A stretch of DNA of 62,003 nt from a virus (lineage: Duplodnaviria; Caudoviricetes): positions 1-62,003 of the IMG/VR virus record IMGVR_UViG_3300031707_000016. One strand, given 5' to 3'. This document shows, piece after piece, positions 5,001 through 62,003 of the stretch (its first letter is position 1; every line of letters begins with the position of its first letter). The translations under genes were made by a program, and so were the position numbers. The notes under the pieces are model-generated. The model saw only the letters and a program-made list of their open reading frames with translations. It did no database searches and was not told where the DNA came from.

Positions 5001-5643
5001 ACGTTTCCAATTTGAACTTGCGAGCACTTGCCAAATAATTTTTCTTGGCTACTGCTTTTGACTTTTTAAGGAACGCTACCCGCTTCTTTGCGAGCTTCAA
5101 GTCTCGCTTTGCTCCTATCAAAATCTCTTCAGGATTATTGTGCTTCCATCGTTCAAGGAAACCTTCCGAGTTACAGAGCATCGTGACATCGCCCGAATCT
5201 CGGGAGAAAAACTTGATTACTTCCTCCAATCGGTTTGTGATATCGAGGATTTCGCCAAGCTCGTAAGAAATCAATTTGTAGTTCTCGTAATCTGGATATG
5301 CTCCAACTATTCGGAGTTTGGTCTCGTAATCAATGAGACAGTTGGCACACAACCCTGTGCGATTGAAAAATTTCTGATCCAACTTACTTCCCCATTTTAT
5401 GACTTGCCCACACTTGCATTTTTGGGTAATCAACTCACGGATCATGTCGCCTTGGGTCTTGGTTATTCGGATAGTTCTTCCGCCCCTCATTTCCCATTCC
5501 ACTCCATCGGAGTCTTTCCACTTATCACCATTGCGACGATACTTTTTTTCGTTACCTGTGTAACCAACTTGTACAAAAGGACGAACGCCCGCTACGTAGT
5601 CCTTCAAAATGTCAATATTGCTCTTGTTTACTCCACGTTTCAT
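4993..5643 (-). CDS. hypothetical protein with CxC and CxxC motifs, upstream of terminase
   Basis: 216-aa ORF overlapping the terminase start; KCKCG and LCANC. Confidence 0.7.
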   Translation of the reverse strand: MKRGVNKSNIDILKDYVAGVRPFVQVGYTGNEKKYRRNGDKWKDSDGVEWEMRGGRTIRITKTQGDMIRELITQKCKCGQVIKWGSKLDQKFFNRTGLCANCLIDYETKLRIVGAYPDYENYKLISYELGEILDITNRLEEVIKFFSRDSGDVTMLCNSEGFLERWKHNNPEEILIGAKRDLKLAKKRVAFLKKSKAVAKKNYLASARKFKLETYV

Positions 5644-5696
5644 AACTGTATATCCTTGTTACCATATCTACATATCAATACCAATGGTATAAAATG

Positions 5697-7967
5697 TTAA
5701 GAAAAGACGGTTTTTGTTCCGGCGGGGTTTATCCAAATTCTTTTTCCAAACGGTCCTGTAAGAAGTCCATCCGCCACGGCACTTCCAGTATATTTAACTG
5801 CAATTGACCTAGCAGTTTTGGTTGTGCTGATTGTTCCCTGTGTTGTGGTCAAATTTACGTAGTCATCTTCAACATTACTCAAATCAGAGACGTTTGTGTA
5901 ACACACTGCGCCGTCGCCCAATGCTGGATTGGGAGGAAAATGTGTGGGGAACTTCCAACCCAAGAGTCGGGTTCCAAGAACCGGGCAACTCCCAATGTTT
6001 GGAATATACAAGCTCTGAGAAATAGTCAAACTTCCAGATACGAAGGTAAGTAGGGTTGGGTCTGAAAGTCCATTTCCATTGAACGCATACAGACTCTCTC
6101 CGTTGGGGTCAAACGTCTGAATCGTTGACAGGTTGGAATACACCAAAGTAGAGTTGATATCATACAACTCTGCCTTCAATTGAAAAGGTTCATTGGCGAC
6201 GTTTACTTTGAACGGTATTTTTGTAAACAAAAGATCAGGAGAAAATCCATAATCGCTGTAAACCTTTAATGACAACTCCGAAAGAGTTACGCTACAGTGG
6301 AACGGCACAATTACCATAGTTCCATAATAGTCTGAGTTCGGCGTGAAATATAGGTACTGTTTGTCTGAAAACACTTTTATGGTAGTATTTTCGTTTGTGG
6401 CAACCGTACCCAGCTTCAATCCATACGGACTGATGTAATCTTTTTCTATGTTTATTCGTGGACTTGAGCTAGTGAAGTAAAAATCGATCTTGGCGTCATG
6501 CGTTGTTTTGGTTTTTTCCATGACCACATTCGCAGACAAAACGTACAACGCTCCCGCCTTTAGAGAAATGAAATTTGAGTTGTATGCCGAACCAGATATT
6601 CTATTAAATGATTCGCTATCATATGGATAGTAAATCCTGTCGTTGACCGTGTTGATTGAATCTGCCTTTACAATGACATATTGCGTTCCATCCATCTGCG
6701 AATATTGACTGGTCGAAATCTTCATTGCATCAATATACGGTTTTACAGAATGCGAAACCGCCATGAAGACCGAACTGGTAAACCAATATCTTTGAATATG
6801 TGACTGATTGTAAAAAGACCCCATCAAAGCATACGTCTTGTTATTGGTGATTGGATCTGTCAGCAATTCCAATGCATTGAGAGGTTCGTCTGCTATAAGT
6901 TGGAAATCTCCGGGGTAAACCAAACTCTTTCTATAAAGTTTGTGGCGAGCAACGAATCCAGAAAAGGGTCTTATGTTTCTATAAACTACTTCGGCATATG
7001 ACTGCTTGATGTATGTGGTTGCCCCGGTTGATACGTCAACAAATTTCAGATAGTCGTCCGACGCAGTATTGTATGCAGTCCATGTGTAAGACGAAGTAAA
7101 TGTTCCTTCGTTGACATTCGTAACAAACTGGTCCTTTCCTACAGTGTAGAAAAATGGATCACTAACCTGCATCGTTTTGCTGTCCAGAATGTTTTTTATT
7201 GTGAACGAAGCAGTCTGCCTCGTATCTTTGGTGACATAAGAATATGGAACTTGAAGCGTGGTGCTTGTAACGGTGATGGATTGTCCCTCCATCTGAGTAT
7301 TGAAAGACTTGGTTGGAAACAAGGTTGGTCCCGCCTGAGAGTCGGGAATATTCAAAATGATACGATAGTCAATATCCGCTTTCTTTGGGTTGATCGACTT
7401 TCGGTTGACATCCTTCTTGGGGGTTACTGCAAGCGAGTAGAAGTTTCCGTAAAAATTGACGGTCTTGGTCAATAGGTCGGCGGTGTTGTTTGTTACGATT
7501 GGATACAACAGACCACGAGATTCAATCGTCGGTTTATTATAGAATCTAACCTTGGAGGTATTTTGCAACGTCTTATCAATTGCGATGTTTCCAATCCAAC
7601 GGACAGTTTCCCCCTTGACCGTGGTTCCCAATAAGATAAGTTTTCCGGCACCGTTGTAAGTCTCCTCGTAAACGCCGATGGATATTAAGAAGTTTGCTAC
7701 GTCAGAATAGGATACATTGCTGTCAGGACGCTCTATGTAGAGAGAATTGCCATTGGAGTCGAGACACTCAACTTGAATTTCAGTTCCGGCCTTTAGGAGG
7801 GATGACCCGTTGAATGCCACTGGGTTTTTTCCACCTGTAAAGACAGGGTTGAACTCGGCAATAACGAAGTATTTTGATAGGTAACTGGTATCTTCGATGT
7901 CGGGTTTAAGGACTAAAAGTCCTAGATTGACACCCTTTTTTCCGAAACTGGACAACAATTGAGCCAT
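5697..7967 (-). CDS. putative virion structural protein
   Basis: 756-aa beta-rich ORF; late-promoter-like motif at 7995. Confidence 0.6.
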   Translation of the reverse strand: MAQLLSSFGKKGVNLGLLVLKPDIEDTSYLSKYFVIAEFNPVFTGGKNPVAFNGSSLLKAGTEIQVECLDSNGNSLYIERPDSNVSYSDVANFLISIGVYEETYNGAGKLILLGTTVKGETVRWIGNIAIDKTLQNTSKVRFYNKPTIESRGLLYPIVTNNTADLLTKTVNFYGNFYSLAVTPKKDVNRKSINPKKADIDYRIILNIPDSQAGPTLFPTKSFNTQMEGQSITVTSTTLQVPYSYVTKDTRQTASFTIKNILDSKTMQVSDPFFYTVGKDQFVTNVNEGTFTSSYTWTAYNTASDDYLKFVDVSTGATTYIKQSYAEVVYRNIRPFSGFVARHKLYRKSLVYPGDFQLIADEPLNALELLTDPITNNKTYALMGSFYNQSHIQRYWFTSSVFMAVSHSVKPYIDAMKISTSQYSQMDGTQYVIVKADSINTVNDRIYYPYDSESFNRISGSAYNSNFISLKAGALYVLSANVVMEKTKTTHDAKIDFYFTSSSPRINIEKDYISPYGLKLGTVATNENTTIKVFSDKQYLYFTPNSDYYGTMVIVPFHCSVTLSELSLKVYSDYGFSPDLLFTKIPFKVNVANEPFQLKAELYDINSTLVYSNLSTIQTFDPNGESLYAFNGNGLSDPTLLTFVSGSLTISQSLYIPNIGSCPVLGTRLLGWKFPTHFPPNPALGDGAVCYTNVSDLSNVEDDYVNLTTTQGTISTTKTARSIAVKYTGSAVADGLLTGPFGKRIWINPAGTKTVFS

Positions 7968-28286: not shown

Positions 28287-31200
28287 TTATAGTGTGACTC
28301 CCGGGCAACTTGCAGTCCAGTTCCATCCCGTTCCCGTCAATGGCGACCACGTTTGAACAATTGCCGTGGAAGAACTACCCGTCTTGAGGAACGTTGCCGT
28401 ACCATGACCGGGGGTTATAATGGTTTCGGATGGCAATCCTCTCGACAGAAGTGCGGTATTCAATGCTGCCTGATACGATGATGCGCCACGGTATCCAGTG
28501 TTAATCACGGTGTTACCCTCATAAATAACGATGTATTTGTCAGGAACATTGTAAGAATTGAATTTCAACTGAATAGAACCCGTTGCAGATCCAAGAGTGA
28601 TGGTGTATTGAGTTGGGAATCCACCGGGAGCGACTCCGCTGCGTGAGCTTCCAGAACTAAAACATGAAACCGCAGGTATTGCATTGACGGTGATATACCC
28701 CACTTGAGTATCTACATCAAACAATTCACCACGGAAGGCAGTAAGCGTAACCGTGTAAACGCCGGGTATGTTATAAACATAGGTAGGAGCAACTTCTACG
28801 CTACCAGTTCCATTTCCAAAGTCCCACGAATATCCATCGGCATCCACACTTAGGTTGGAGAAGTTTACAGTCAATGGGTAATTTCCAGACGTAACATCCG
28901 CAATGAAGTTTGCTATTGGAACCACTGTGACCGGAGCAAGGATGATGTTTGGATCGGCGACGATTCCACCAGCAAAGTGCCCAAGTTGATATGGGTCCAT
29001 CATATCCCCGATATACGTTCCACCCATCAAATAGTTGACGGGGTACATTCTGTTTGGCAAATTGAGATATGACAAATTCACATCAATAATTCTATTTTCG
29101 GGCATAGAATTGGTGTTGAAATTTGATACGGAGTTCGTATTAAAGTTGAAGTCCGCATAGAGAAGCGACTCTGTAAGGCGACACAACTTGGTGTTTGGGT
29201 CACGGAAATAATGTGATGCAGTCGCTTCACCATACCACACCGAACCACTGTTCATTTCGCTTCCGATTGGTTTAATTGGATACTTCGGACGCTCCAAAAT
29301 GGAGGGTTCTATCAACACTCCAACAAGTGCATTCGCACGGGCGGGCACAACGTTCCTGATTGCTTCAAATATGGAACGGTTGAAGTATAGCTTGTAGAGT
29401 GTGATTAACTCATTGAACAAAGTTCTGCTTCCGCTGCCTTCATTAAGTGATGAGGCGTATTCTTTGCGGAAAAGATTGAGCGATTGATAACTCTGTGAAT
29501 ACTGATTGAATGGCGCACCGATTGCATCCATGAAATCGAAATTTCCAAAGTATCTTACCGTATCTTTGTTACGGAAATCCTGTGGGTCAACGAAGAATCC
29601 TACTTGGTTGGAATCTGGTGCCGTGTTGTTGCGAGGAACATACGTAGAACGCTCCTTGTTGTCAAATCGGGCAGCAATAGATTGGGATGTATGCCTTACC
29701 TTTTCATTTCTGAATTTGTTTGGACCATATTTGGACACTCCCCAAGTGCTTGGATAATCAATTACCTTGAATTGCCACGGGTATGTAGATTGTGACACGT
29801 ATCGGCAGGAGGCGGTATCATAAACCAACTTTTGCGAACCACTCCACGCCGCATAATTGGCCATCAAATCCATGTTGTTGATTTGTGTTGGCGTTGGCGT
29901 CAGACAATCAAATTGCTTGTTTATCGAGTTTGTTGCATAGTATGGGTTTGCATTTCTCCACTGTCCTACCCATACGTTATATGGTCCAGACAACCCTATG
30001 AAGTTGTTTGGTACGGCATCACCCGGGGCAATTTGACGCATGTCAAATGGATAGTCCGTATGCATACGGAACAATAGAGATTGGTGAGCGGGACGTGACC
30101 CGCTAAAACTGTAGGCGTTTATGCTGTTGGCGTAATCTTCAAAGTTACTATCGGTAATGGCATCATACCATACCTGAAGTTTGTCCATTGCTCCGGTAAA
30201 TCCTTGTCCGTTTCGGTCAGCAAACCAACCACCGAGCATAAGGTAAGACCCAGATGAATCAACCGAGAATCTATGATTGATTGCATAATCATACGAGACT
30301 TTACTTGAAGTAAGTCTTAGTGTCTGGTTTCCAAACTCATTCTTCTGAACATACAAATCAAATATACTTGGAATAGCATCTGTGTTTGTATTGTATTCAA
30401 ATCCCGTAGGAACCAGATTACGACGAAGCATCAAGCTATAGATGCTTCCGTCAAAGAGCGGGAATGTTGAGCTGGTAATTTTGAACTGAGGATTGTTATC
30501 ATATCCAATTCGGAAGTACACTCGTCCGAGATTTGGTCCTGGTTCACGAATAAATCCAACGGTCCAATCTCCCGAACCAGATGGGGAATTTGCAGTGACG
30601 CCTCCCCCAACCACTCCCAACATGTTTTGTTCTCTTCCATAAACATAACTGTCCGCATCGCCGATGCAGAACTTCAGGAGAAACGTGTTACAATTGGTAG
30701 TGAGATTGTTTCTGAAATGGTCGTACTTGGAAGACGTGTCCCACTGATACATGAAGGAACGCTCATACGTGGTGTATGACGCCTTTTCATCTGTATAGTT
30801 GACTCCACCGTATTCACGAATAGTCAACAGCGAAGACGGAACGCCATAACAAGCAAGAATGACACGGACAGACTCTTCGGTTCCCTTAGTCTTGAAAATG
30901 CGTGGCAAGTTGATGAGAATACGATTTCTCACTTCCTTGAGACGGTCTTCCGCAGACATACCATTCAACCCCTCCTGTTGTTCAGAAGTCAAGTAGTTGT
31001 TCAGCATGTTCGCCTGTTCCAACGAATCATCCAGCGTCCAACCAAAAGTCTCAAGCATGTATTCTACAATGCGACGAGTAAATGCTTCTGTTGCCCCCGA
31101 ACCGACGTGCCTTTCCGAAGGCATGTTAGCGATGTAGATGTAGATTTCATCAAAGAAGTGACCAATCATCGAAAGGAAAATGATGTAGTCATCGTTTAAG

Positions 31201-45974: not shown

Positions 45975-48392
45975 TTACACGTACTGAACTGTCCACGCCC
46001 TTGATTGTAATGTTGCTATTCTCGTAAGAGTAACGGGCAGCAATGCGGCATTTCCACGGATATCCAACGAGCCGGAAAGTAATCCATTTGTAACCAAATC
46101 AGCACAACTACTATCTTGAACTACCGCTGATAAGTTGTTATAGGATGCATCCAAATATTTTACAAGTGGAGGAATGGTTGGGAGATTAACCAATGATGGA
46201 TTGTCTCGAACCCAAAACCATACCAAAGATGATGGAAGAGTAGTCAACCATCCGGACAAATTTGTGTTGCTGGAGAATGACATGCTTACAACGCTCGAAG
46301 GGAATGATGCAGGCGGCCCAACGATACTGTTAGCATCGCAATAGAGTTCTTTTAGTCCGACTGGCAATGTTGCCGGTAGGGTAGTGATTGCATTTTGAGA
46401 ACAATTTATGTATCCATTTGACATGGAATCTGGCAACAATGGGAGACGAGACAATGAAGAATTTGCAACATACAATCTTTTGATAGATGTATTATCCAAA
46501 CGTTTCAATGAAGACAAGCTGCTAGTCTGGAATGACATGGTTAGCAAAGAGGATGGCATACCACTTACACTTGTAAGTCCAGTTGCATTCGACCCTGAAA
46601 TATAGAACATGCTCGTCATTGTCCATACGTTGTGTGCCCCGCCGTTTACACCCGACAAATCTACTTGCAATATTTGATCCGAACCTGTAATTGCCATGTT
46701 AGTTGCAGTATCCACAAACGGCCCGCCGCCAAGAGAGAAAAACGTAATAAAATCGGGGTTATCTGTGTAGAACGCAAGCGGTTCTCCTACAGATACAGAA
46801 AGCGTTCCGATGTTTACATCTACTCCAAATCTCGATAACCTATTCGGAGAAAAACTAATCTTATTGGAAGATGCCGTGACATAGAGCATGTAATCGTCAG
46901 CAAGGAGAACCGACGATGCCATCATACCAAAATTCATAGTGAACGACCCCGAAATCTGATTCGTAATAGTTCCCGTCATAATTCCATTCATAGAACCAGT
47001 GACAGAACCCGAAATAGAACCTGTGGTTACGCCGTTAATTGACCCCGTGGATTGACCGTTAAACGAACCTGTGAGAGTTCCGTTAACCGAACCAGTCACC
47101 GTTCCTGTCAGAGATGCAGTAACAGAACCATCAATTGACCCCGTGCCGAAATTAGAACCGGAAATTGACCCCGTGATTGAACCAGTGATGCTTCCGTTGA
47201 TTGACCCGGTTGTCTGTCCATTAACTGAACCCGTTACTGTTCCGCTTGTAGAACCTGTGATACTGCCGATTACTGAACCAGTCACCGTTCCGATTACTGA
47301 ACCGATAAATGATCCGGAAATTGTTCCAACAAATGTTGAAGTATTACCGACGAAGTAATATATTGGAGTCATATCCAATACTTGGTCAACGCCTGTAGTT
47401 CTGTTCAAAAGGTGAAGAGTAACACTTTCGCTCAATGCTACAGATGCAGTAAATGGAATCGTCAAAGTTCCTTTTACGTCAAAAGAGGCGGTCATTAAAC
47501 CACTTGAATTAAGCGTAACAACGTCCACCTGACTACTGGTGATGGATTGTGTTATTGCCGTAAATACTCCGTATTGGGTAGTACTTGCATCTCCAATGAG
47601 GAATGATGCTGTCAGTGCGGTAACTGCCGTGGTTGCATTTTGAGCATAACTTGCAGAAATTGATGAAGATGCCCACGAAGCACTTGATTGGAAATTTGTG
47701 GTAATACCTACCAAGGCAATATCTGCTACATCAGCATGAGATGCAGATGTTGAAGAGTCGGCGAAATCGGATGTTTGTGAACGAATGGCAAGAGATGCCG
47801 TTCCATTGCCACGGAATACGTTATACTGAAGATAACTAGAAGTCTGTGCTTGTGATGAAGTAGCGGCAAAACTGGAAGAAATAGACCCGGAACCTCCACC
47901 ACCATTCAATGCAAAACTTGCTGTAAGAGCAAGAAGAGAAAATGACGACGTTCCATTTGGAACTCCTGCATAAATCAGAAATGATGCGCTATTGGCAAGA
48001 CCGGCAAAATTTGCGAAAGAAGCGGATGCGACTGTTTGTGACAGGACATAGGATGCGGTTTGAGTAAATGAACTACTCAGAGAATAGGAAGCAGACGTTG
48101 CTGCTGCCGAATAGGAACTGCTAATTGATCGCAGGGCAGTGCTTGCGGAAATAGCAAACGACGAGGATACCGTTGGTGGAGAAAATGACGCACTAACCGT
48201 GTTAATTGCCCAACTTGCAGTTCCATTCAAAGAACCTGTCAGGTTTCCGCCCGACAGAATGTAGGAACTCAAGTCTGCCAATGTCAGCTTCTTTGATTCG
48301 TGCGCTGTAACGTCGGCCAATAGCAACAAATCCGCTGCGGTTAGATCGACAACGGTGATTGGAGCCAGTTCTGATACTCTCTTATTTGCCAT
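45975..48392 (-). CDS. tail-fibre-like protein with SAS/TGS repeats and C-terminal leucine-rich repeats
   Basis: TGS(I/V) tetrad repeats; LSRLPLLPDSM, ITTLPATLPVGLKELYCDANSI, LVNLPTIPPLVKYLDASYNNL. Confidence 0.75.
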   Translation of the reverse strand: MANKRVSELAPITVVDLTAADLLLLADVTAHESKKLTLADLSSYILSGGNLTGSLNGTASWAINTVSASFSPPTVSSSFAISASTALRSISSSYSAAATSASYSLSSSFTQTASYVLSQTVASASFANFAGLANSASFLIYAGVPNGTSSFSLLALTASFALNGGGGSGSISSSFAATSSQAQTSSYLQYNVFRGNGTASLAIRSQTSDFADSSTSASHADVADIALVGITTNFQSSASWASSSISASYAQNATTAVTALTASFLIGDASTTQYGVFTAITQSITSSQVDVVTLNSSGLMTASFDVKGTLTIPFTASVALSESVTLHLLNRTTGVDQVLDMTPIYYFVGNTSTFVGTISGSFIGSVIGTVTGSVIGSITGSTSGTVTGSVNGQTTGSINGSITGSITGSISGSNFGTGSIDGSVTASLTGTVTGSVNGTLTGSFNGQSTGSINGVTTGSISGSVTGSMNGIMTGTITNQISGSFTMNFGMMASSVLLADDYMLYVTASSNKISFSPNRLSRFGVDVNIGTLSVSVGEPLAFYTDNPDFITFFSLGGGPFVDTATNMAITGSDQILQVDLSGVNGGAHNVWTMTSMFYISGSNATGLTSVSGMPSSLLTMSFQTSSLSSLKRLDNTSIKRLYVANSSLSRLPLLPDSMSNGYINCSQNAITTLPATLPVGLKELYCDANSIVGPPASFPSSVVSMSFSSNTNLSGWLTTLPSSLVWFWVRDNPSLVNLPTIPPLVKYLDASYNNLSAVVQDSSCADLVTNGLLSGSLDIRGNAALLPVTLTRIATLQSRAWTVQYV

Positions 48393-52042: not shown

Positions 52043-52116
52043 TGGTGGAGCCAAGGGGAATCGAACCCCTATCCCATCACTGCCAGCGATATGTCCTACC
52101 GTTGAACGATGGCCCC
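52043..52116 (-). tRNA. tRNA-Ala(GGC)
   Basis: G3:U70 pair, loop CTGGCAG, ACCA. Confidence 0.93.
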
Positions 52117-52208
52117 ATGTCAGCGGAACGTGCCCGCCGATTTGATTCACAACACTCTAAGGTGTTGGAGTTCCGGCTTCTTTATACACCCGCCTCCCGG
52201 TGTTAATT

Positions 52209-52282
52209 TGGTGGAGCTGAGGGGAATCGAACCCCTATCTACGCAGTGCAAGTGCATCGTCCTACCGTTGAACGACAGCCCC
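52209..52282 (-). tRNA. tRNA-Ala(TGC)
   Basis: G3:U70 pair, loop CTTGCAC, ACCA. Confidence 0.93.
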
Positions 52283-52291
52283 GAAAACAAC

Positions 52292-52380
52292 TAGATGCCG
52301 CCTTTATAGTCAGCGTGACTCCCCTTGCGGGAATTTAGGTTTGCTTATTAGGCAAATATTTGTGTTGCAGTGTGCATCTA
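52292..52380 (-). ncRNA. orphan structured RNA
   Basis: Terminal TAGATGC/GCATCTA; hairpins TTTGC/GCAAA, TTCCC-GCAA-GGGGA, GTCA/TGAC. Confidence 0.5.
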
Positions 52381-52387
52381 AAAAAAG

Positions 52388-52460
52388 TGGTTGCGGTCGC
52401 CAGAATTGAACTGGTCCCTGACCTTATGAGAGTCATGTGCAGCCATCACACTTCCCCGCA
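52388..52460 (-). tRNA. tRNA with CAT anticodon (Met-type) and atypical acceptor stem
   Basis: TGACT-CTCATAA-GGTCA; T loop TTCAATT; acceptor TGCGGGG/GACCGCA with 2 mismatches; ACCA. Confidence 0.75.
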
Positions 52461-56820: not shown

Positions 56821-57000
56821 TTACTTGTTTCTACAAAAAATTATGTTGAACATAACCACGAAGATAAGTATCAAAGGCCACAACAAAACGTTGAATGACC
56901 AGAACGTGGTTCTCTCCCGCCAATTGCCAAGCGGACCAATGTCTATCCACAACAAAAGTCCCCACACGAATCCCAAAATCAGATAGAGTGTGATTAACAT
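56821..57000 (-). CDS. small two-TM membrane protein, 59 aa (absent from ORF track)
   Basis: MLITLYLILGFVWGLLLW...LLWPLILIFVVMFNIIFCRNK; TTGACA promoter near 57029-57034. Confidence 0.6.
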   Translation of the reverse strand: MLITLYLILGFVWGLLLWIDIGPLGNWRERTTFWSFNVLLWPLILIFVVMFNIIFCRNK

Positions 57001-57043
57001 GACATACTTTATACTATCGTCTCTTGGTTGTCAAGAAACAAAT

Positions 57044-57117
57044 TGGTAGGCGATATTGGAGTTGAACCAATGCCTGTTCCGTGTGAGAGAACTATTCTAC
57101 CGTTATAATAATCGCCC
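57044..57117 (-). tRNA. tRNA-Val(CAC)
   Basis: GTTCT-CTCACAC-GGAAC; TTCAACT; ACCA. Confidence 0.88.
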
Positions 57118-57118
57118 A

Positions 57119-57310
57119 TTATCTTCCACCGTTGTTCCACCAAGACTTGGCGGCACGCATGGAAGGAAATTCACCCGTGCAGTGGTCAGGTGCGTAATAC
57201 AACCACCATCTACGTTTGCTTCGGAACAATCTAACTTCTTTGTTGAAAGGTTTGATTTCTCCCTCGACGATTTCCACTCGGCAACCATTCCATATTCTTG
57301 CTTTGGACAT
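57119..57310 (-). CDS. small hypothetical protein
   Basis: MSKARIWNG..., 63 aa. Confidence 0.55.
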   Translation of the reverse strand: MSKARIWNGCRVEIVEGEIKPFNKEVRLFRSKRRWWLYYAPDHCTGEFPSMRAAKSWWNNGGR

Positions 57311-57311
57311 A

Positions 57312-57647
57312 TCAGGAGTGGTTGTAGTGAAATTTGAAGTGGAACTCAATCCCCGCCGCATTCAAGTGATGAAGAATTGCTCCACCATCCTTAAACAAAT
57401 GGTTAATCATCTCCTCTGCCTTCTTGCTATCAGATTCATAGGCAACAACGCCAGCACCGAAATAGTTGCGGGCAGATTGTTTGTCGGGACCAGTTCCATA
57501 GAAACGGTCGAGATGTTTTTCAATTGCTTCTGGTTTGGTATCGGCATAGCAGAAGTTGATTTCGTAAGTGAAACCTTCGCCCGTGGCGAAGTATTCCATG
57601 TAGGTGAGATACCCACGGTATTCCGTCGTAACTTTTTTCTTTGCCAT
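57312..57647 (-). CDS. hypothetical protein
   Basis: MAKKKVTTEYRG..., 111 aa, starts just after tRNA-Ser(GCT). Confidence 0.65.
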   Translation of the reverse strand: MAKKKVTTEYRGYLTYMEYFATGEGFTYEINFCYADTKPEAIEKHLDRFYGTGPDKQSARNYFGAGVVAYESDSKKAEEMINHLFKDGGAILHHLNAAGIEFHFKFHYNHS

Positions 57648-57651
57648 AAAT

Positions 57652-57739
57652 TGGCGGAAGGCAGAGATCCCGCCTCTCACCCCCTTTCAGGGGCCATCGG
57701 TTTAGCAAACCGTGACAAGCCTCGCCTGCTTTACCTTCC
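57652..57739 (-). tRNA. tRNA-Ser(GCT), 8/4 cloverleaf with non-canonical D and T loops
   Basis: GGAAGGTA/TGCCTTCC; CGGT-TTGCTAA-ACCG; variable arm; GAGA-GGCGGGA-TCTC; GCCA. Confidence 0.85.
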
Positions 57740-57829
57740 GTAGGTCAAGTATTTTCCTTGGAAAACCTTTGTAAAAAGTCACATTGGAATTTCGCCACAT
57801 TTTCCTGCCTGTGGATTTAACCACTCAGC

Positions 57830-58111
57830 TCATGGTCGGTTGTCAATGATTACCCTAGATTCTTCCCACTCCTGAAATTTCTCAGGACTTTGGGCACAAA
57901 AAACATCCAAACATCCATGACACTCCATGTCATCGGGAGGAACATCACCTTTGTATTTGGGATGCCACTCACACTTTGTTATGTTTTCCTTCCGCCATTT
58001 TACAGTGGCGGCAAATTGACGCTCTACTTGCTCAAGGGTTGGAGGAGGCAACTTTTTCAGTGCTTCCATTTGGTCTTTCAACCATTGCGGTGCAGATATA
58101 ACGTCTTTCAC
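57830..58111 (-). CDS. hypothetical protein with CxxH and CxxC motifs
   Basis: 93-aa ORF, GTG start. Confidence 0.6.
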   Translation of the reverse strand: MKDVISAPQWLKDQMEALKKLPPPTLEQVERQFAATVKWRKENITKCEWHPKYKGDVPPDDMECHGCLDVFCAQSPEKFQEWEESRVIIDNRP

Positions 58112-58116
58112 AAAAT

Positions 58117-58190
58117 TGGTACGGAGTAGAGGTTCTGCCCCTCTGATCTCTCGGTGTAAGCGAGATTTGATACTATTTCAACAACTCCGC
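58117..58190 (-). tRNA. tRNA-Val(TAC) with non-canonical D and T loops
   Basis: TCTCG-CTTACAC-CGAGA; D loop AATAGTA; T arm AGAGG-GGCAGAA-CCTCT; ACCA. Confidence 0.85.
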
Positions 58191-58195
58191 ATAAA

Positions 58196-58286
58196 TGGCG
58201 GAAGGCTGAGGTCACGCTCCCCACACCCGTCTTAGGGGTGCATACGCATTTCAAGTGCGTTCCGAGTCTCACCCGGTTAACCTTCC
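58196..58286 (-). tRNA. tRNA-Ser(TGA), 8/4 cloverleaf with non-canonical D and T loops
   Basis: GGAAGGTT/AGCCTTCC; ACGCA-CTTGAAA-TGCGT; variable arm; GGGG-AGCGTGA-CCTC; GCCA. Confidence 0.85.
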
Positions 58287-58335
58287 ATCTGTCAATAAAT
58301 ATGACAGAAAATCTCAAAAATGTCAACTACTAAAT

Positions 58336-58409
58336 TGGTTGGTCTTGAAGGATTCGAACCTTCACAAAAAGCTTCAAAGGCTTCTGTGCTACCATTACAC
58401 CAAAGACCA
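58336..58409 (-). tRNA. tRNA-Gln(TTG)
   Basis: TGGTCTT/AAGACCA; loop CTTTGAA; TTCGAAT; ACCA. Confidence 0.92.
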
Positions 58410-58414
58410 ATGAA

Positions 58415-58726
58415 TTGTCAATAGTATGCTATTACGCCAAAGGGACGGGTTCTGCCATTGCAGTAATCAGCTGAATTCTGCTGACCAATCATGGTTCCAG
58501 ACAACTTGCCAATGTCAATTCACTGGTTCTTACAGTCACGATGTAATGTTTGCCTCCGAGCAACTCAGTTGAATACGTCAACCTTTCACGCCGCTATCAA
58601 ACTTTCACGGCGATATGATGTCACATGGAGACATGTTCCCACTTATTATAGGCACCAGACTTTTCAGTTGAAAAGTCTGATGAACTTTTCAGTTTGGCTG
58701 CCTCTAAGCCCACCTTCTACTGACAA
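58415..58726 (-). ncRNA. structured RNA mimicking 23S rRNA H43/H44 (L11-binding GTPase-associated centre) with a ~250-nt insert
   Basis: 5' AGAAGGTGGGCTTAGAGGCAGCCA, 3' GCGTAATAGC, closed by the 10-bp stem TTGTCAGTAG/CTATTGACAA. Confidence 0.75.
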
Positions 58727-58731
58727 ATTGT

Positions 58732-58807
58732 TGGTGGCCCTACTCGGACTCGAACCGAGAACTAATCTTTAGGAAAGACCTATGATGTCCAATTTCACCA
58801 TAGAGCC
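58732..58807 (-). tRNA. tRNA-Arg(CCT)
   Basis: Loop TTCCTAA; A20; TTCGAGT; ACCA. Confidence 0.92.
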
Positions 58808-58815
58808 ACTGTTGA

Positions 58816-59376
58816 TTAACGTCCCGCACGATACCCACGGCTGATTTCAGCGTCGGTAACGACTTCCTTCTTAGTCTCCACCACGGAGAACTTGCCAAGC
58901 GCACGGTCAGCGATTTTCTGATACGCATTGACCATCGTATCATAGAGGAAGTTGAAAAAGTCACCCGTGAGTCCCCACGCCAATGACCAAGGCCACCAAG
59001 CAATCCATCCCGTAAGACGTGCCTTGTGACCAGAGACGGAAATCTCGCTCTTCAATTCGGAGCGTTGTGAAGGCGTCAGTGTATTGCCATATTTTTCAGC
59101 ATATCGTGCCGCAGACTTTTGTACAAGACGATACCATTTGAAAACTGACCAAACGACGCCGACTAGGGCGTATCCACCGACAATGAGGGCGAGTGTTTGC
59201 CATCCCACTGCTATCAGCGGTTTCCAAAACACAATTCCTAGCACAATTGCTGTTATGCTTGGAGTGGCGTAATGGTCATTTTCAATAGAAGCGATGAAGA
59301 TGACGCTGGCGATGAGTGTGAGAGCCCAGAACCAAAAGGTTCCGAATGCGAATGTTGCGAGTATAGTTTCAATCAT
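58816..59376 (-). CDS. multi-pass membrane protein
   Basis: MIETILATF start after a TTGACA...TAAGAT promoter; several TM helices; WIAWWPWS. Confidence 0.7.
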   Translation of the reverse strand: MIETILATFAFGTFWFWALTLIASVIFIASIENDHYATPSITAIVLGIVFWKPLIAVGWQTLALIVGGYALVGVVWSVFKWYRLVQKSAARYAEKYGNTLTPSQRSELKSEISVSGHKARLTGWIAWWPWSLAWGLTGDFFNFLYDTMVNAYQKIADRALGKFSVVETKKEVVTDAEISRGYRAGR

Positions 59377-59422
59377 AGGTGTGCATCTTATCACATCTCC
59401 ATGATTTGTCAAGCTAAGAAAT

Positions 59423-59498
59423 TGGTGCCGCAACCGAGACTCGAACTCGGAACTTCGCTTTAGAAGAGCACTATGATGTCCAATTTCACCATTGCGGC
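59423..59498 (-). tRNA. tRNA-Arg(TCT)
   Basis: Loop CTTCTAA; same D arm as Arg(CCT); ACCA. Confidence 0.92.
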
Positions 59499-59514
59499 AT
59501 AGACTTTGCTTTTG

Positions 59515-59673
59515 TCAACGGGGTACAAAGTCCATACATCCCCGTATTACTTTGTTTCCAATAACAGGTACAGTTCCAACAATTCCAAAACAATCACTAT
59601 TGCGGTCGGCATAGCCTCCTACTAGGATTATCACTTCCTTGTTGCTGTTAGTAGCAGGTAATATACTGCTCAT
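59515..59673 (-). CDS. small hypothetical protein
   Basis: MSSILPATNSNKEV..., 52 aa between tRNAs. Confidence 0.4.
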   Translation of the reverse strand: MSSILPATNSNKEVIILVGGYADRNSDCFGIVGTVPVIGNKVIRGCMDFVPR

Positions 59674-59676
59674 ATT

Positions 59677-59750
59677 TGGTATCCCATAGGAGAATCGAAC
59701 TCCTGCTATCACCTTGAAAGGGTGTCGTCCTACCACTAGACGAATGGGAC
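59677..59750 (-). tRNA. tRNA-Glu(TTC)
   Basis: GTCCCAT/ATGGGAT; loop CTTTCAA; ACCA. Confidence 0.93.
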
Positions 59751-59757
59751 ATAAAAT

Positions 59758-59967
59758 TTATAGTGTCGCTGATGGCTTCCATTCGGAACGTGTAAAATAG
59801 ATACTACTATCTACAAATGGATTCCCATTGACAATCGGGCAATACTCTCCATTTATTCCTTGCCATTCCAAGACTTCAAACACGGTTCCTCTTGGAATAC
59901 GTGCATAATTATCGAGTTCATTGAACTGATAATCTTCTAACAATTCAATTTTTTTAGGATCGTTCAT
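59758..59967 (-). CDS. small hypothetical protein
   Basis: MNDPKKIELL..., ATGA overlap with the iscU stop. Confidence 0.6.
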   Translation of the reverse strand: MNDPKKIELLEDYQFNELDNYARIPRGTVFEVLEWQGINGEYCPIVNGNPFVDSSIYFTRSEWKPSATL

Positions 59968-60356
59968 TTTGACAATTGTCTCTTCTTGTAATCTTCCAAA
60001 GCAGCTTTCAGTGCTTCCTCGGCAAGAACCGAGCAATGGATTTTTACTGGCGGCAGACCGCCCAAAGCATCAACAACTTCTTGATTGGAAAATGTTTCCA
60101 TTTCCTCAATGGTGCGCCCCTTAATCAATTCCGTTGCCATTGAACTGGCGGCAATCGCCGACCCACATCCAAAAGTTTTGAACCGAGCATCTTGAATTCT
60201 CCCATCTTTTACCTTGATGGTTACTTTCATGATGTCACCACAAGCAGCTGCACCCACTTCTCCAATACCATCGGCATCCTTGATGTCACCCATGTTACGT
60301 GGATGCAAGAAATGGTCCATTACGGTATCATTATACAATGTGTAAGTTTCGCTCAT
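59964..60356 (-). CDS. iscU: Fe-S cluster scaffold, IscU/NifU N-terminal family
   Basis: DHFLHPRNMG, GAAACGD, FKTFGCGSAIAASS, LPPVKIHCSVLAEEA (three Cys and the LPPVK chaperone motif). Confidence 0.92.
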   Translation of the reverse strand: MSETYTLYNDTVMDHFLHPRNMGDIKDADGIGEVGAAACGDIMKVTIKVKDGRIQDARFKTFGCGSAIAASSMATELIKGRTIEEMETFSNQEVVDALGGLPPVKIHCSVLAEEALKAALEDYKKRQLSK

Positions 60357-60363
60357 ACTAAAT

Positions 60364-60449
60364 TGGTGCTGGTGGAGGGACTTGAACCCACAATGCCTTT
60401 CGGCTCTACATTCTGAGTGTAGCGTGTTTGCCAATTACACCACACCAGC
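60364..60449 (-). tRNA. tRNA-Leu(CAG)
   Basis: CTACA-CTCAGAA-TGTAG; variable arm GCC-GAAA-GGC; ACCA. Confidence 0.93.
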
Positions 60450-60452
60450 ATA

Positions 60453-60561
60453 GACAAGTTCAGCGTCACCCTTGGTTTCCTGCCACAGCAATTATTAGTC
60501 GCTGTTTGGGATTGCCCACACCTAGCCAAGAGATACGGCAATTCTCTGCGCCTTACTTGTC
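60453..60561 (-). ncRNA. orphan multibranch structured RNA
   Basis: GACAAGT/ACTTGTC; CTCTTGG/CCAAGGG; TGGG-CAAT-CCCA; ACAGCGA/TTGCTGT. Confidence 0.55.
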
Positions 60562-60564
60562 AAA

Positions 60565-60732
60565 TTATTTCTGCAAAACTCGCAGCACGAGTTTCGCCTT
60601 CTTCAACTTCTGCTCGGTCTTCTCAACCTCTTCGGGAGAAGAATTTTTGCGGAAGTTTGCACTTCGCAAACGAGTCTCAAGAAACTTGATGTAATCTTGC
60701 TCGTGTTGCAATCGCTTTGCGTCTTTGCTCAT
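60565..60732 (-). CDS. small basic helical protein, 55 aa (absent from ORF track)
   Basis: MSKDAKRLQHEQDYIKFLETRLRSANF...LRVLQK. Confidence 0.6.
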   Translation of the reverse strand: MSKDAKRLQHEQDYIKFLETRLRSANFRKNSSPEEVEKTEQKLKKAKLVLRVLQK

Positions 60733-60736
60733 AAAG

Positions 60737-60821
60737 TGGTAGCACCGAACGGATTCGAACCGATAAAGGATGACAAGTTCTAAGCTTGTTGCTTGTGCCA
60801 GCTTCGCTTATCCACGGTGCC
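60737..60821 (-). tRNA. atypical tRNA-Leu(TAG)
   Basis: ACAAG-CTTAGAA-CTTGT; TTCGAAT; ACCA; no variable-arm hairpin; insertion after the acceptor stem. Confidence 0.75.
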
Positions 60822-60828
60822 ACAAATT

Positions 60829-60912
60829 TGGTGCGGGTGGAGGGACTCGAACCCCCACGGATTTCTCCGGCAGATTTTGAGTCTGCTGCGGCTACCATTA
60901 CGCCACACCCGC
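60829..60912 (-). tRNA. tRNA-Leu(CAA)
   Basis: GCAGA-CTCAAAA-TCTGC; variable arm; ACCA. Confidence 0.93.
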
Positions 60913-60915
60913 ATA

Positions 60916-61061
60916 GACAGTAAGCGGTTTCCTACTTGTATTTCGTACTCCCTCGTCTATTGCTCCCATTTGTGGATGGTGTCATTTTCGTTCCACAGTG
61001 GTTACATACAACCGAACAAGCAAGACACGCCCCTTCGGTTTATTGACTTATCCATACTGTC
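60916..61061 (-). ncRNA. orphan structured RNA
   Basis: GACAGTA/TACTGTC terminal stem; AACCGAA/TTCGGTT; TGTGGA/TCCACA. Confidence 0.5.
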
Positions 61062-61070
61062 AAATTGTTA

Positions 61071-61235
61071 TGGGCTGAGTGCGTTTTCACGCAAGCCTTC
61101 ATGAAGGCGTCAACCTACCTAAGTCTTAAGCCTCGTAGGAGCGTCAAATCCATGTGTCCCTGAACGCTGTCTCACTATCGTAAAATGCTTCGATGGCACA
61201 TATTGTCGTGAGACTTTTTCCGACTTCTCAGCCCA
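61071..61235 (-). ncRNA. orphan multibranch structured RNA starting at a consensus promoter
   Basis: TGGGCTGAG/CTCAGCCCA; GTCTCAC/GTGAGAC; AGCGT/ACGCT; CCTAC/GTAGG; TGCGT-GAAA-ACGCA. Confidence 0.62.
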
Positions 61236-61242
61236 CGGGTGG

Positions 61243-61270
61243 ATTATACCACACATCAGGTGGATGTCAA
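61243..61270 (-). promoter_or_regulatory. consensus sigma70 promoter
   Basis: TTGACA-N16-TATAAT with TGn extension; late motif adjacent at 61273. Confidence 0.75.
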
Positions 61271-61298
61271 CCTATAAATACTGTGCCAAATTTGAAAG

Positions 61299-61374
<76 letters not shown>

Positions 61375-61576
61375 AAAATACCGCACTACTCTGGATGGGG
61401 AGAGCGTGTGCGGGAGTATTTTCTCCTTACCGGAGGTAATATATTACCCATCTGTTATCTCTCTATGGAGTGGAGCCTTGAGAGCGTGTCAAACTTTATC
61501 CACCATATCAACATGATTCACATGCTTTGTTGTCAGCCCCACAGTGTATAGACAACCTTCACCCGTGGGGAATTCA

Positions 61577-61801
61577 TTACTTGGCATCGGGAAGCGATGA
61601 CTCCAAGTCAAACTCAAACTGACCTGACGCCTTTGGAGCGAATGGTCTCAACATTTTTGAAAGTTCGTTCGGGAAGTCGAAGTAAAAACAGAGGGAATCT
61701 GTGCCAACATAAACGTTGGGACCGAGTTGCCGTTTAACCGCCTTGTCAAACGCCCGCATGTTCTCAAAGTCTTTTTCTTCAAATGTCAAGTGCAGTTTCA
61801 T
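61577..61801 (-). CDS. hypothetical protein
   Basis: 74-aa ORF downstream of a sigma70-type promoter. Confidence 0.6.
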   Translation of the reverse strand: MKLHLTFEEKDFENMRAFDKAVKRQLGPNVYVGTDSLCFYFDFPNELSKMLRPFAPKASGQFEFDLESSLPDAK

Positions 61802-61923
61802 AAATCAAGTCGCTTTTCTAACCTCCATGAGCCAGATATTCCACCGAGCGGCGAGTCCAAGGGGATTGTACTCTTGTGCCTCTGGTTCAGCGTCCTTTAG
61901 GAGGCTTTGTAATCATTGACTGT

Positions 61924-61951
61924 ATCATACACCATCTTGACGGAATGTCAA
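61924..61951 (-). promoter_or_regulatory. sigma70-type promoter
   Basis: Minus strand TTGACA-N16-TATGAT. Confidence 0.6.
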
Positions 61952-62003
61952 GCGGTAAAAAAAAGAAGGGGAAGGATTTCACGGGCGTTCCGGTTCCAAC
62001 ATG

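Follow-up and report, generated by a model that had tools for sequence, protein, structure and literature searches.

What does a phage encode in the 322 nt that separate tRNA-Arg(CCU) from tRNA-Gln(UUG) on the minus strand of IMG/VR record IMGVR_UViG_3300031707_000016? The window analysed here is the whole stretch of 62,003 nt of this record, which is 18% complete and belongs to a large uncultured T4-like phage (Duplodnaviria; Caudoviricetes). An earlier note, made from the window alone, had proposed that this gap holds an rRNA mimic that rebuilds the GTPase-associated centre (GAC) of 23S rRNA around a single insert and might bind uL11 or uL10, damp RelA signalling, relieve L10 autoregulation or absorb toxins. 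We are highly confident that the element belongs to a large family of non-coding phage RNAs and is a self-closed replica of the 23S rRNA domain consisting of the top of helix H42, H43 and H44, the GAC. The proposal of an rRNA mimic is strongly supported by the secondary structure, by the junction and base-triple nucleotides that are kept and by covariation in every variable helix, and the account of the insert had to be revised.

A SELF-CLOSED COPY OF THE GAC BETWEEN TWO tRNA GENES

As the earlier note had stated, the element occupies the gap between tRNA-Arg and tRNA-Gln; the spacers measure 5 nt on either side (Table 1), and the mature RNA likely corresponds to ~58410-58731, i.e. the interval between both tRNAs. 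The whole element has a minimum free energy of -100.2 kcal/mol (z=-3.1) with its terminal helix closed, and this helix (P1), whose 10 bp proved genuine, closes the domain directly at G1055-C1104. The two-part motif occurs once in the window and in none of 100 shuffles. Both minus-strand stretches quoted before are present, at 58685-58718 and 58423-58437; the former is identical to E. coli 23S 1054-1087 at 25 of 34 positions, as had been counted, and the latter to 1091-1105 at 13 of 15 (reference NC_000913.3 rrlH, L136:2260-5163), with GCGUAAUAGC identical to E. coli 23S. The reference sequence used agrees with the 60-nt uL11-binding construct given in PMC1802607.

Within the H43-like part, the sole difference of GGCUUAGAGGCAGCC from E. 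coli is A1070G. The equivalents of A1067 and A1095, both indeed retained, lie at 58705 (by comparison with E. coli 23S) and 58433, respectively, and that of U1102 at 58426. The lower-stem pairs A1057-U1081, G1058-C1080 and G1059-C1079 are formed in the window copy, and the 1082-1086 pair is A-U. At the arm site the order is AAGU, then the GGG...CCC arm, then UUUGGCGUAAUAGCAUAC; here A1087 (58644) pairs with U1102 (58426), whereas the family mostly has G-C, and A1087-U1102 is a compensatory double change within AAGU and GCAUAC.

With Rfam 15, only tRNA families reached the gathering score in the window, nothing else credible appeared at E<=10 in 58100-58850, and no family other than tRNA was matched at 18 other loci; the family of the element is absent from this database. 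The large-subunit rRNA models gave no match at the gathering score in the window or at E<=10 in 58100-58850. The view that the window contains no further rRNA stands, since Rfam returned only tRNAs and nothing in the arm matches an rrn operon significantly. In the literature searched, with most subscription journals and supplementary files outside its reach, no description of a phage GAC-like RNA was found. A plus-strand open reading frame (ORF) of 93 aa at 58491-58772 was not taken as a gene, because it runs opposite to every gene of the window and lies inside the conserved RNA.

Table 1. Parts of the GAC-like RNA and its flanking tRNA genes in the window (numbers such as 1067 are E. coli 23S equivalents).
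Feature	Position	Strand	Basis
Whole GAC-like RNA, family-model match of 314 nt	58414..58727	-	R1 match at all 168 model positions
P1 (H42-like) 5' strand, UUGUCAGUAG	58717..58726	-	pairs with 58415-58424
H43-like 5' strand, 1067 loop and upper-stem 3' strand (1056-1077 equivalents)	58695..58716	-	model alignment
Insertion 1, 41 nt, at 1077/1078: 12-nt leader and 13-bp hairpin	58654..58694	-	model alignment
GCCUAUAAUAAGU, 1078-1090 equivalents: lower H43 3' strand, 1082-1086 triloop pair, A1087, A1088	58641..58653	-	model alignment
Insertion 2, 199-nt branched arm at 1090/1091, GGG/CCC closure	58442..58640	-	model alignment
UUUG linker, H44-like hairpin and 1101-1104, UUUGGCGUAAUAGCAUAC	58424..58441	-	model alignment
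P1 3' strand, CUAUUGACAA	58415..58424	-	fold and model alignment
tRNA-Arg(CCU), CCA encoded, upstream, 5 nt from P1	58732..58807	-	tRNA calls
tRNA-Gln(UUG), downstream, 5 nt from P1	58336..58409	-	tRNA calls

A LARGE PHAGE FAMILY WITH COVARYING HELICES

A scan of IMG/VR with a 15-nt H43 motif returned at least 120 stretches. Among the matches listed, the extended H43 motif occurs at 99 places, 92 of which are accompanied within 900 nt by the 3' core UUUGGCGUAAYAGCACAC (<=4 mismatches), and 77 of these 92 members were kept as non-redundant by shared 9-mers. Only one of the recovered loci, L089, is a genuine 23S fragment.

The GAC structure was written on a MAFFT alignment (A1) of 42 members of <=215 nt, taken from the 76 non-redundant ones other than the window. 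In A1, 86.9% of cells are paired compared with 63.8% in shuffles, and covariation is 0.578 compared with 0.150, a value reached by 0 of 500 shuffles; structures slid along the alignment as controls gave 0.11-0.19. A covariance model (R1, 168 positions) derived from these 42 phage copies, with the window excluded, matched the window over its full length (1-168) with 73.9 bits (E=1.2e-16). The next R1 matches in the window score 8.3 and 5.9 bits; the former, at 47469-47592 (E=1.1), lies inside ORF 45975-48392 and is regarded as noise. All long-arm members tested match R1 with 63-108 bits, a range that includes the window score, and the compact arm-less copies L110 and L023 score 51.3 and 36.1 bits, respectively; the real 23S of L089 scores 41.1 bits with its 5' end cut.

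A second alignment holds 84 model-aligned members, 83 of them distinct, with the window included; being fitted to the model, it leans towards the structure. Its 83 distinct members have 89.3% of cells paired (64.0% in shuffles) and a covariation of 0.622 (0.155 in shuffles, none of 500 reaching the observed value; slid controls 0.08-0.17), and the independent alignment A1 agrees with it. Across the family, all 11 pairs of P1 and all four pairs of the arm-closing stem covary. A search for other members with the GCAUAC variant of the window yielded nine stretches. L128 (18.1 bits), which also has A1087, is the only one that resembles a weak member.

TWO INSERTIONS INSTEAD OF ONE

The earlier note had described one insert of ~250 nt at about 1088-1090. 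The family model instead separates two insertions, of 41 nt at 1077/1078 and of 199 nt at 1090/1091. The difference lies in AAACUGAAAAG, which directly follows GCAGCC and had been aligned to 1077-1087; it is not homologous to that stretch, the true equivalent of 1078-1090 being GCCUAUAAUAAGU. Identity to E. coli is equal under both alignments, at 6 of 11 each. The model alignment is preferred because all three lower-stem pairs then form, because the stem of the arm falls where every other member has one, after a GAGU-type 1087-1090, and because a match to the family consensus that would otherwise be unaccounted for is explained. Furthermore, the insertion site is used by 10 other members of the 84, and CCAUCCUUUAAAGAGU stands there in L116 and L135, the nearest relatives, neither of which has the hairpin.

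Insertions at 1077/1078 measure 19-47 nt in the 11 members, window included, that have them. The hairpin in the window copy, at 58653-58682, had been given 14 bp and has 13 (-18.1 kcal/mol, z=-5.2). Insertion 1 contains the direct repeat AACUGAAAAGU twice (58654-58694, minus strand), and GACUUUUC is able to pair with either copy, giving an 8-bp alternative to the 13-bp hairpin; the insertion may have originated by duplication. Among the 11 members with a hairpin inserted here, four (L008, L039, L084 and L115) have a UUGAG loop motif in common on differing stems, and the hairpin of the window has the loop AACU without this motif.

The arm at 1090/1091 varies from 0 to 318 nt across the family and has little common sequence. 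Only the arms of L116 and L135 can be recognised as relatives of the window's arm (z=13 for L116), with which they share motifs that include GUGAAAGUU, GAGUUGC..GGAGG and GUAAGAACC followed by a hairpin; this hairpin shows a compensatory change, CCAGUG/CAUUGG in the window against CCUGUG/CAUAGG in L116. Judged by these shared motifs and this compensatory change, the arm of the window is not a spacer but a branched, conserved domain specific to its lineage. Comparison of the arms with E. coli rrnH and partial 23S for other rRNA pieces, such as a sarcin-ricin-like partner, gave only noise. The idea that the insert might be excised as an intron found no support, with no group I or II intron or ribozyme family of Rfam matched in the window or at 18 other loci.

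Elsewhere in the family the arms fall into recurring motif classes, one with GUGCGAAAUG...AUGAUGUG and one with CACCCCGNAAACNGGUAAGG (members in alignment A1: L014, L024, L038, L041, L045, L082, L093, L122 and others; L012, L018, L024, L037, L087, L096 and L107), L024 having both, and the arms may be modular add-on domains. In compact members the arm is absent or very short, as in L110 (4349-4419, minus strand, 71 nt), L023 (3707-3778, plus strand, 72 nt) and L042 (4484-4600, minus strand, 117 nt). L110 retains the rRNA-type GCUCAC. Compact members could be ancestral forms or separate captures.

CONSTRAINT ON THE FOLD AND ON THE LOOP TIPS

Several positions outside all search patterns are near-invariant and identical to rRNA, namely U1083 (81 of 84), A1084 and A1085 (84 of 84 each) and A1088 (83 of 84), and also U1060 and the pair G1087-C1102. 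The 1082-1086 pair covaries (UA 43, CG 20, AU 7), and so does the 1087-1102 pair, which is GC in 78 of the 83 distinct members, AU in two (one being the window), CG in one and GU in one. An unbiased sample of H43 is provided by 29 distinct members recovered through the 3' motif only. In these, the upper stem of H43 covaries (1062-1076: GC 23, AU 1, UA 1; 1064-1074: CG 26, AU 2) and G1071, C1072, U1066 and A1077 are invariant, whereas position 1067 is A in 20, G in six, C in two and U in one, and position 1068 is G in 15 and A in 14. The H44 loop was sampled through the 5' motif, and among the 81 rows with a letter G1093 (81), U1094 (80) and A1098 (81) are almost without exception, with A1095 in 73 and A1096 in 68.

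In PMC1802607, the contacts of the C-terminal domain of uL11 are given as 1058-1060, 1062-1065, 1075-1083 and 1088, and thiostrepton is placed at the A1067 and A1095 loops. In the family, the published uL11 contact nucleotides are invariant or vary solely as covarying pairs. By these counts, the fold and the uL11 face are constrained more tightly than the tip contacted by factors and thiostrepton, a pattern that points to a partner recognising the fold, for instance the C-terminal domain of uL11, rather than to one that reads the A1067 tip.

DISTRIBUTION AND GENOMIC CONTEXT

The 18-nt 3' core, with GCACAC where real 23S has GCUCAC, is present in at least 119 IMG/VR stretches; in 185,579 prokaryote species (one genome each), the same 18-mer was found in 44 stretches, mostly in metagenome-assembled genomes and a few Clostridia isolates, and 31 of these loci were confirmed by R1. 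Querying INPHARED with the window's own stretch gave tRNA matches only. BLAST of one member against INPHARED returned ~22 cultured phages, other short records being rRNA contaminants. Carriers include Pseudomonas phages pf16, Astolliot, UNO-G1W1 and Milchi; Aeromonas phage 4_4572; Serratia phage BF; six Erwinia pEa_SNUABM phages and Kaldavass; Xanthomonas phages XbC2, XacN1 and XaC1; Cronobacter phage GAP32; Pectobacterium phage CBB; Yersinia phages fHe-Yen9-03/04; Vibrio phage 2.275.O; and Paenibacillus phage Pd_22F. In the three cultured records inspected (pf16, 4_4572 and GAP32), the element sits in an unannotated gap and scores 108.3, 100.6 and 91.7 bits with R1, respectively; in pf16 (KU873925.1) it occupies ~29412-29608, with tRNA-Asn and tRNA-Pro on its two sides.

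The genes of the window, all on the minus strand, include those for a T4-type portal, a T4-type terminase, an SbcCD-like nuclease and PhoH. At 52 of the 77 non-redundant loci the stored stretch contains a tRNA, in all 52 at least one on the strand of the element, and at 25 it contains none; a same-strand tRNA lies within 100 nt at 32 loci and within 20 nt at 29, and nine elements have tRNAs to either side. Within 6 kb of the element, no protein family is common to more than five of the 77 loci, and the commonest neighbours are HNH-type endonuclease-like ORFs (five loci).

The search for ribosomal proteins covered 50 complete-length carrier entries, of which 21 are >=90% complete, with controls responding in 14 of 14 genomes for uL11, 14 of 14 for uL10 and 10 of 14 for bL12. 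Neither uL11 (PF00298) nor uL10 (PF00466) was found in any of the 50 records, and bL12 (PF00542) appeared in three as short partial matches, one over the cut-off; any ribosomal-protein partner must therefore be host-derived.

Two further loci are of a particular arrangement. L085 carries tandem copies of the element (5122-5364 and 5439-5710, plus strand) with a tRNA-Pro between them on one viral contig, and at L095 (2558-2841, minus strand) the element overlaps an ARAGORN call of tRNA-Arg, this copy possibly being lodged within a split or intron-bearing tRNA gene.

PROPOSED FUNCTION AND ALTERNATIVE EXPLANATIONS

Considering the pattern of constraint, we put forward the following mechanism. The element would be transcribed together with the phage tRNA array and would probably be freed by the enzymes that mature the two neighbouring tRNAs, each 5 nt away. 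The free RNA may then be an off-ribosome mimic of the GAC fold that captures a host protein, most likely the C-terminal domain of uL11, a tentative reading to which we give somewhat less than an even chance. By this capture, uL11 may be withdrawn from new or exchanging ribosomes, and RelA-dependent stringent signalling would then be blunted during infection. In relC/rplK mutants, uL11-deficient ribosomes fail to activate RelA.

Several points weigh against the capture of uL11. The loop tips are mostly conserved (A1095 in 73 of 81 and A1067 in 20 of 29 members), so that binding of the C-terminal domain of uL11 alone is an insufficient explanation. P1 varies in sequence and length and has no conserved kink-turn, which makes binding of uL10 doubtful. 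The insertion at 1077/1078 in the window and those in 10 other members fall within 1075-1083, a stretch of published uL11 contacts, and could stand in the way of uL11 if they do not project away from it. Titration of an abundant ribosomal protein would demand expression at levels like those of tRNAs, and the large, fast-evolving arms are given no role. Furthermore, the sequencing runs that contain window DNA are sediment DNA assemblies, the single RNA run having 0.06 of the sampled words present. Contigs of runs X4-X7 compared with 58300-58850 covered mainly the tRNAs, along with identical low-depth fragments; one diverged 261-nt contig of X5 extends over the first 33 nt of the element only.

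In its broadest form, which we regard as doubtful, the proposal is that an off-ribosome particle of the free GAC copy and host uL11, perhaps with stalk proteins, rewires translation control in large phages of many bacterial phyla, either because the loss of uL11 silences RelA-dependent stringent signalling or because ribosomes are shielded from toxins directed at the GAC. If true, the element would stand for a kind of viral RNA not recognised before, one built to resemble a functional centre of the ribosome. Viruses are defined partly by the absence of ribosomes, and a widespread viral copy of a ribosomal centre would give phages a new handle on translation, the stringent response or anti-ribosome defences. 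As cultured phages of laboratory hosts are among the carriers, for instance Pseudomonas putida phage pf16 and Aeromonas phage 4_4572, a direct test is possible. The family also offers natural variants of the 58-nt uL11 domain, a classic RNA-protein model, with insertions tolerated at 1077/1078 and 1090/1091.

The chief rival, rather unlikely in our judgement, is an anti-defence decoy, a pseudo-substrate or competitive inhibitor for toxins and enzymes that hit this rRNA site (ADP-ribosyltransferases, nucleases or methyltransferases). Ribosomes would be protected much as phage tRNAs replace tRNAs cleaved by host defences. Phage tRNA genes have been linked to evasion of tRNA-targeting defences, and the element is located among them. 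The H44 loop is well kept at G1093, U1094 and A1098 (81, 80 and 81 of 81), and the enrichment in viruses by the 18-mer counts given above is strong. According to PMC8661411, the toxin Tre23 ADP-ribosylates 23S H44 at 1095-1098, within a fragment 1043-1123, which is exactly this site. However, Tre23 is an interbacterial effector of a type VI secretion system, and no GAC-targeting anti-phage defence system was found in the literature searched. No conserved anti-defence gene neighbours the element at the 77 loci, A1095 and A1096 vary in 8 and 13 of 81 members, respectively, and the carriers infect very different hosts, so that a decoy would need a near-universal attacker.

It is improbable that the element serves as a sponge for something that binds the loop tips, i.e. 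a translational GTPase (EF-G, EF-Tu, IF2 or RF3), RelA with deacylated tRNA, or thiopeptides of the thiostrepton class. A1067 changes abolish thiostrepton binding, and A1067 is replaced in nine and G1068 in 14 of the 29 members chosen irrespective of H43. Translation factors bind the isolated GAC domain only weakly, and the arms contain no sarcin-ricin-loop partner or other rRNA piece. What speaks for a sponge is the presence of both A1067 and A1095 in the window and in most members, thiostrepton binding at both loops (PMC1802607).

We see an equally small chance that the element acts in cis or is selfish, as a folding or processing module of the tRNA array or as a mobile RNA module that spreads among tRNA clusters and tRNA introns, with no target in trans. 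The tight adjacency to tRNAs, the HNH-type endonuclease-like ORFs as commonest neighbour, though at five of 77 loci, and the overlap with a tRNA call at L095 would fit such an element. Against it, the stored stretch lacks a tRNA at 25 of the 77 loci, none of the intron and ribozyme families was matched, and the keeping of exact GAC tertiary-contact nucleotides would be unexplained for a processing module.

A decaying host 23S fragment or an assembly contamination, suggested by the identity to 23S (25 of 34 and 13 of 15), has virtually no chance of being correct, given the element's own covarying closing helix with tRNAs 5 nt away on both sides, compensatory changes throughout the family, differences from the host 23S in the three genomes that hold both, and flanks free of rRNA.

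ORIGIN AND RELATION TO KNOWN RNAs

Compared with the GAC of bacterial 23S (top of H42, H43 and H44; E. coli 1051-1108; the 58-nt uL11/thiostrepton-binding domain), the phage element has the same helices in the same order and shares the 1067 and 1095 loops, U1060, A1088, G1071, C1072, the 1082-1086 triloop pair and the 1087-1102 pair. It differs in being free-standing, with a variable closing helix of its own, and in being encoded among tRNAs; in having an arm of 0-318 nt at 1090/1091, a UUUG linker, U1101A and sometimes a hairpin at 1077/1078; and in tolerating changes of A1067 and G1068. The real 23S of three Clostridia genomes reads ...AAAGAGUGCGUAAUAGCUCAC, and the GAGU of the family is thus a natural rRNA form, with the arm and UUUG lying between 1090 and 1091. 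Where the element and a real 23S occur in one genome, which is the case in three, the two differ at their variable positions. This difference, together with the derived features common to members (arm site, UUUG linker and U1101A), points, from few cases, to one old family rather than repeated capture.

Leaders of ribosomal-protein operons that mimic rRNA, such as the L10 leader, are cis-regulatory 5' leaders of the protein's own mRNA in cellular genomes. The phage element resembles them as an off-ribosome RNA that imitates the rRNA site of a ribosomal protein, but it is a separate RNA in tRNA arrays, is followed in the window by tRNA-Gln, and has a uL11 or uL10 gene to lead in none of the 50 carrier records. 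GOLLD, ROOL and the stable RNAs of the T4 tRNA cluster are phage-carried non-coding RNAs that often adjoin tRNAs, and to this extent the element is like them; unlike them, it matched no Rfam family here or at 18 other loci, and we know of none among them that copies an rRNA domain. Pseudo-ToxI of phage PhiTE is reportedly a phage decoy RNA directed against a host defence. With such decoy RNAs and spare tRNAs the element would have in common that a viral RNA imitates a host RNA to divert a host protein, the difference being that it imitates a ribosomal functional centre.

OTHER FEATURES OF THE tRNA ARRAY

The minus-strand promoter-like site nearest to the element is at 59412-59385. In 57000-62003, 16 sigma-70-like promoter matches were counted where 6.8 +/- 2.3 were expected, an enrichment in the tRNA array; on the minus strand, the sites at 61270-61243 and 61951-61924 are among those that match perfectly or almost so, and this distribution suggests that the array may hold several transcription units.

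An ARAGORN call of a 'tmRNA' at 52043-52418 (minus strand) is probably false; it spans two tRNA-Ala genes, has an implausible tag peptide and corresponds to no Rfam tmRNA. On the 3' side of tRNA-Gln, two RNAs ending in CCA, at 58196-58286 and 58116-58190 (both minus strand), have perfect cloverleaves as their minimum-energy folds and were called by neither ARAGORN nor the Rfam tRNA model; a promoter-like site lies upstream of both at 58326-58298 (minus strand). One is class-II-like and has CUUGAAA as its anticodon loop, a D stem of 6 bp closed by 3 nt, and CGUGACC as its T loop. The other has the anticodon loop CUUACAC, a D loop without GG and the T loop GGCAGAA. Both may be non-canonical phage tRNAs or tRNA-like RNAs.

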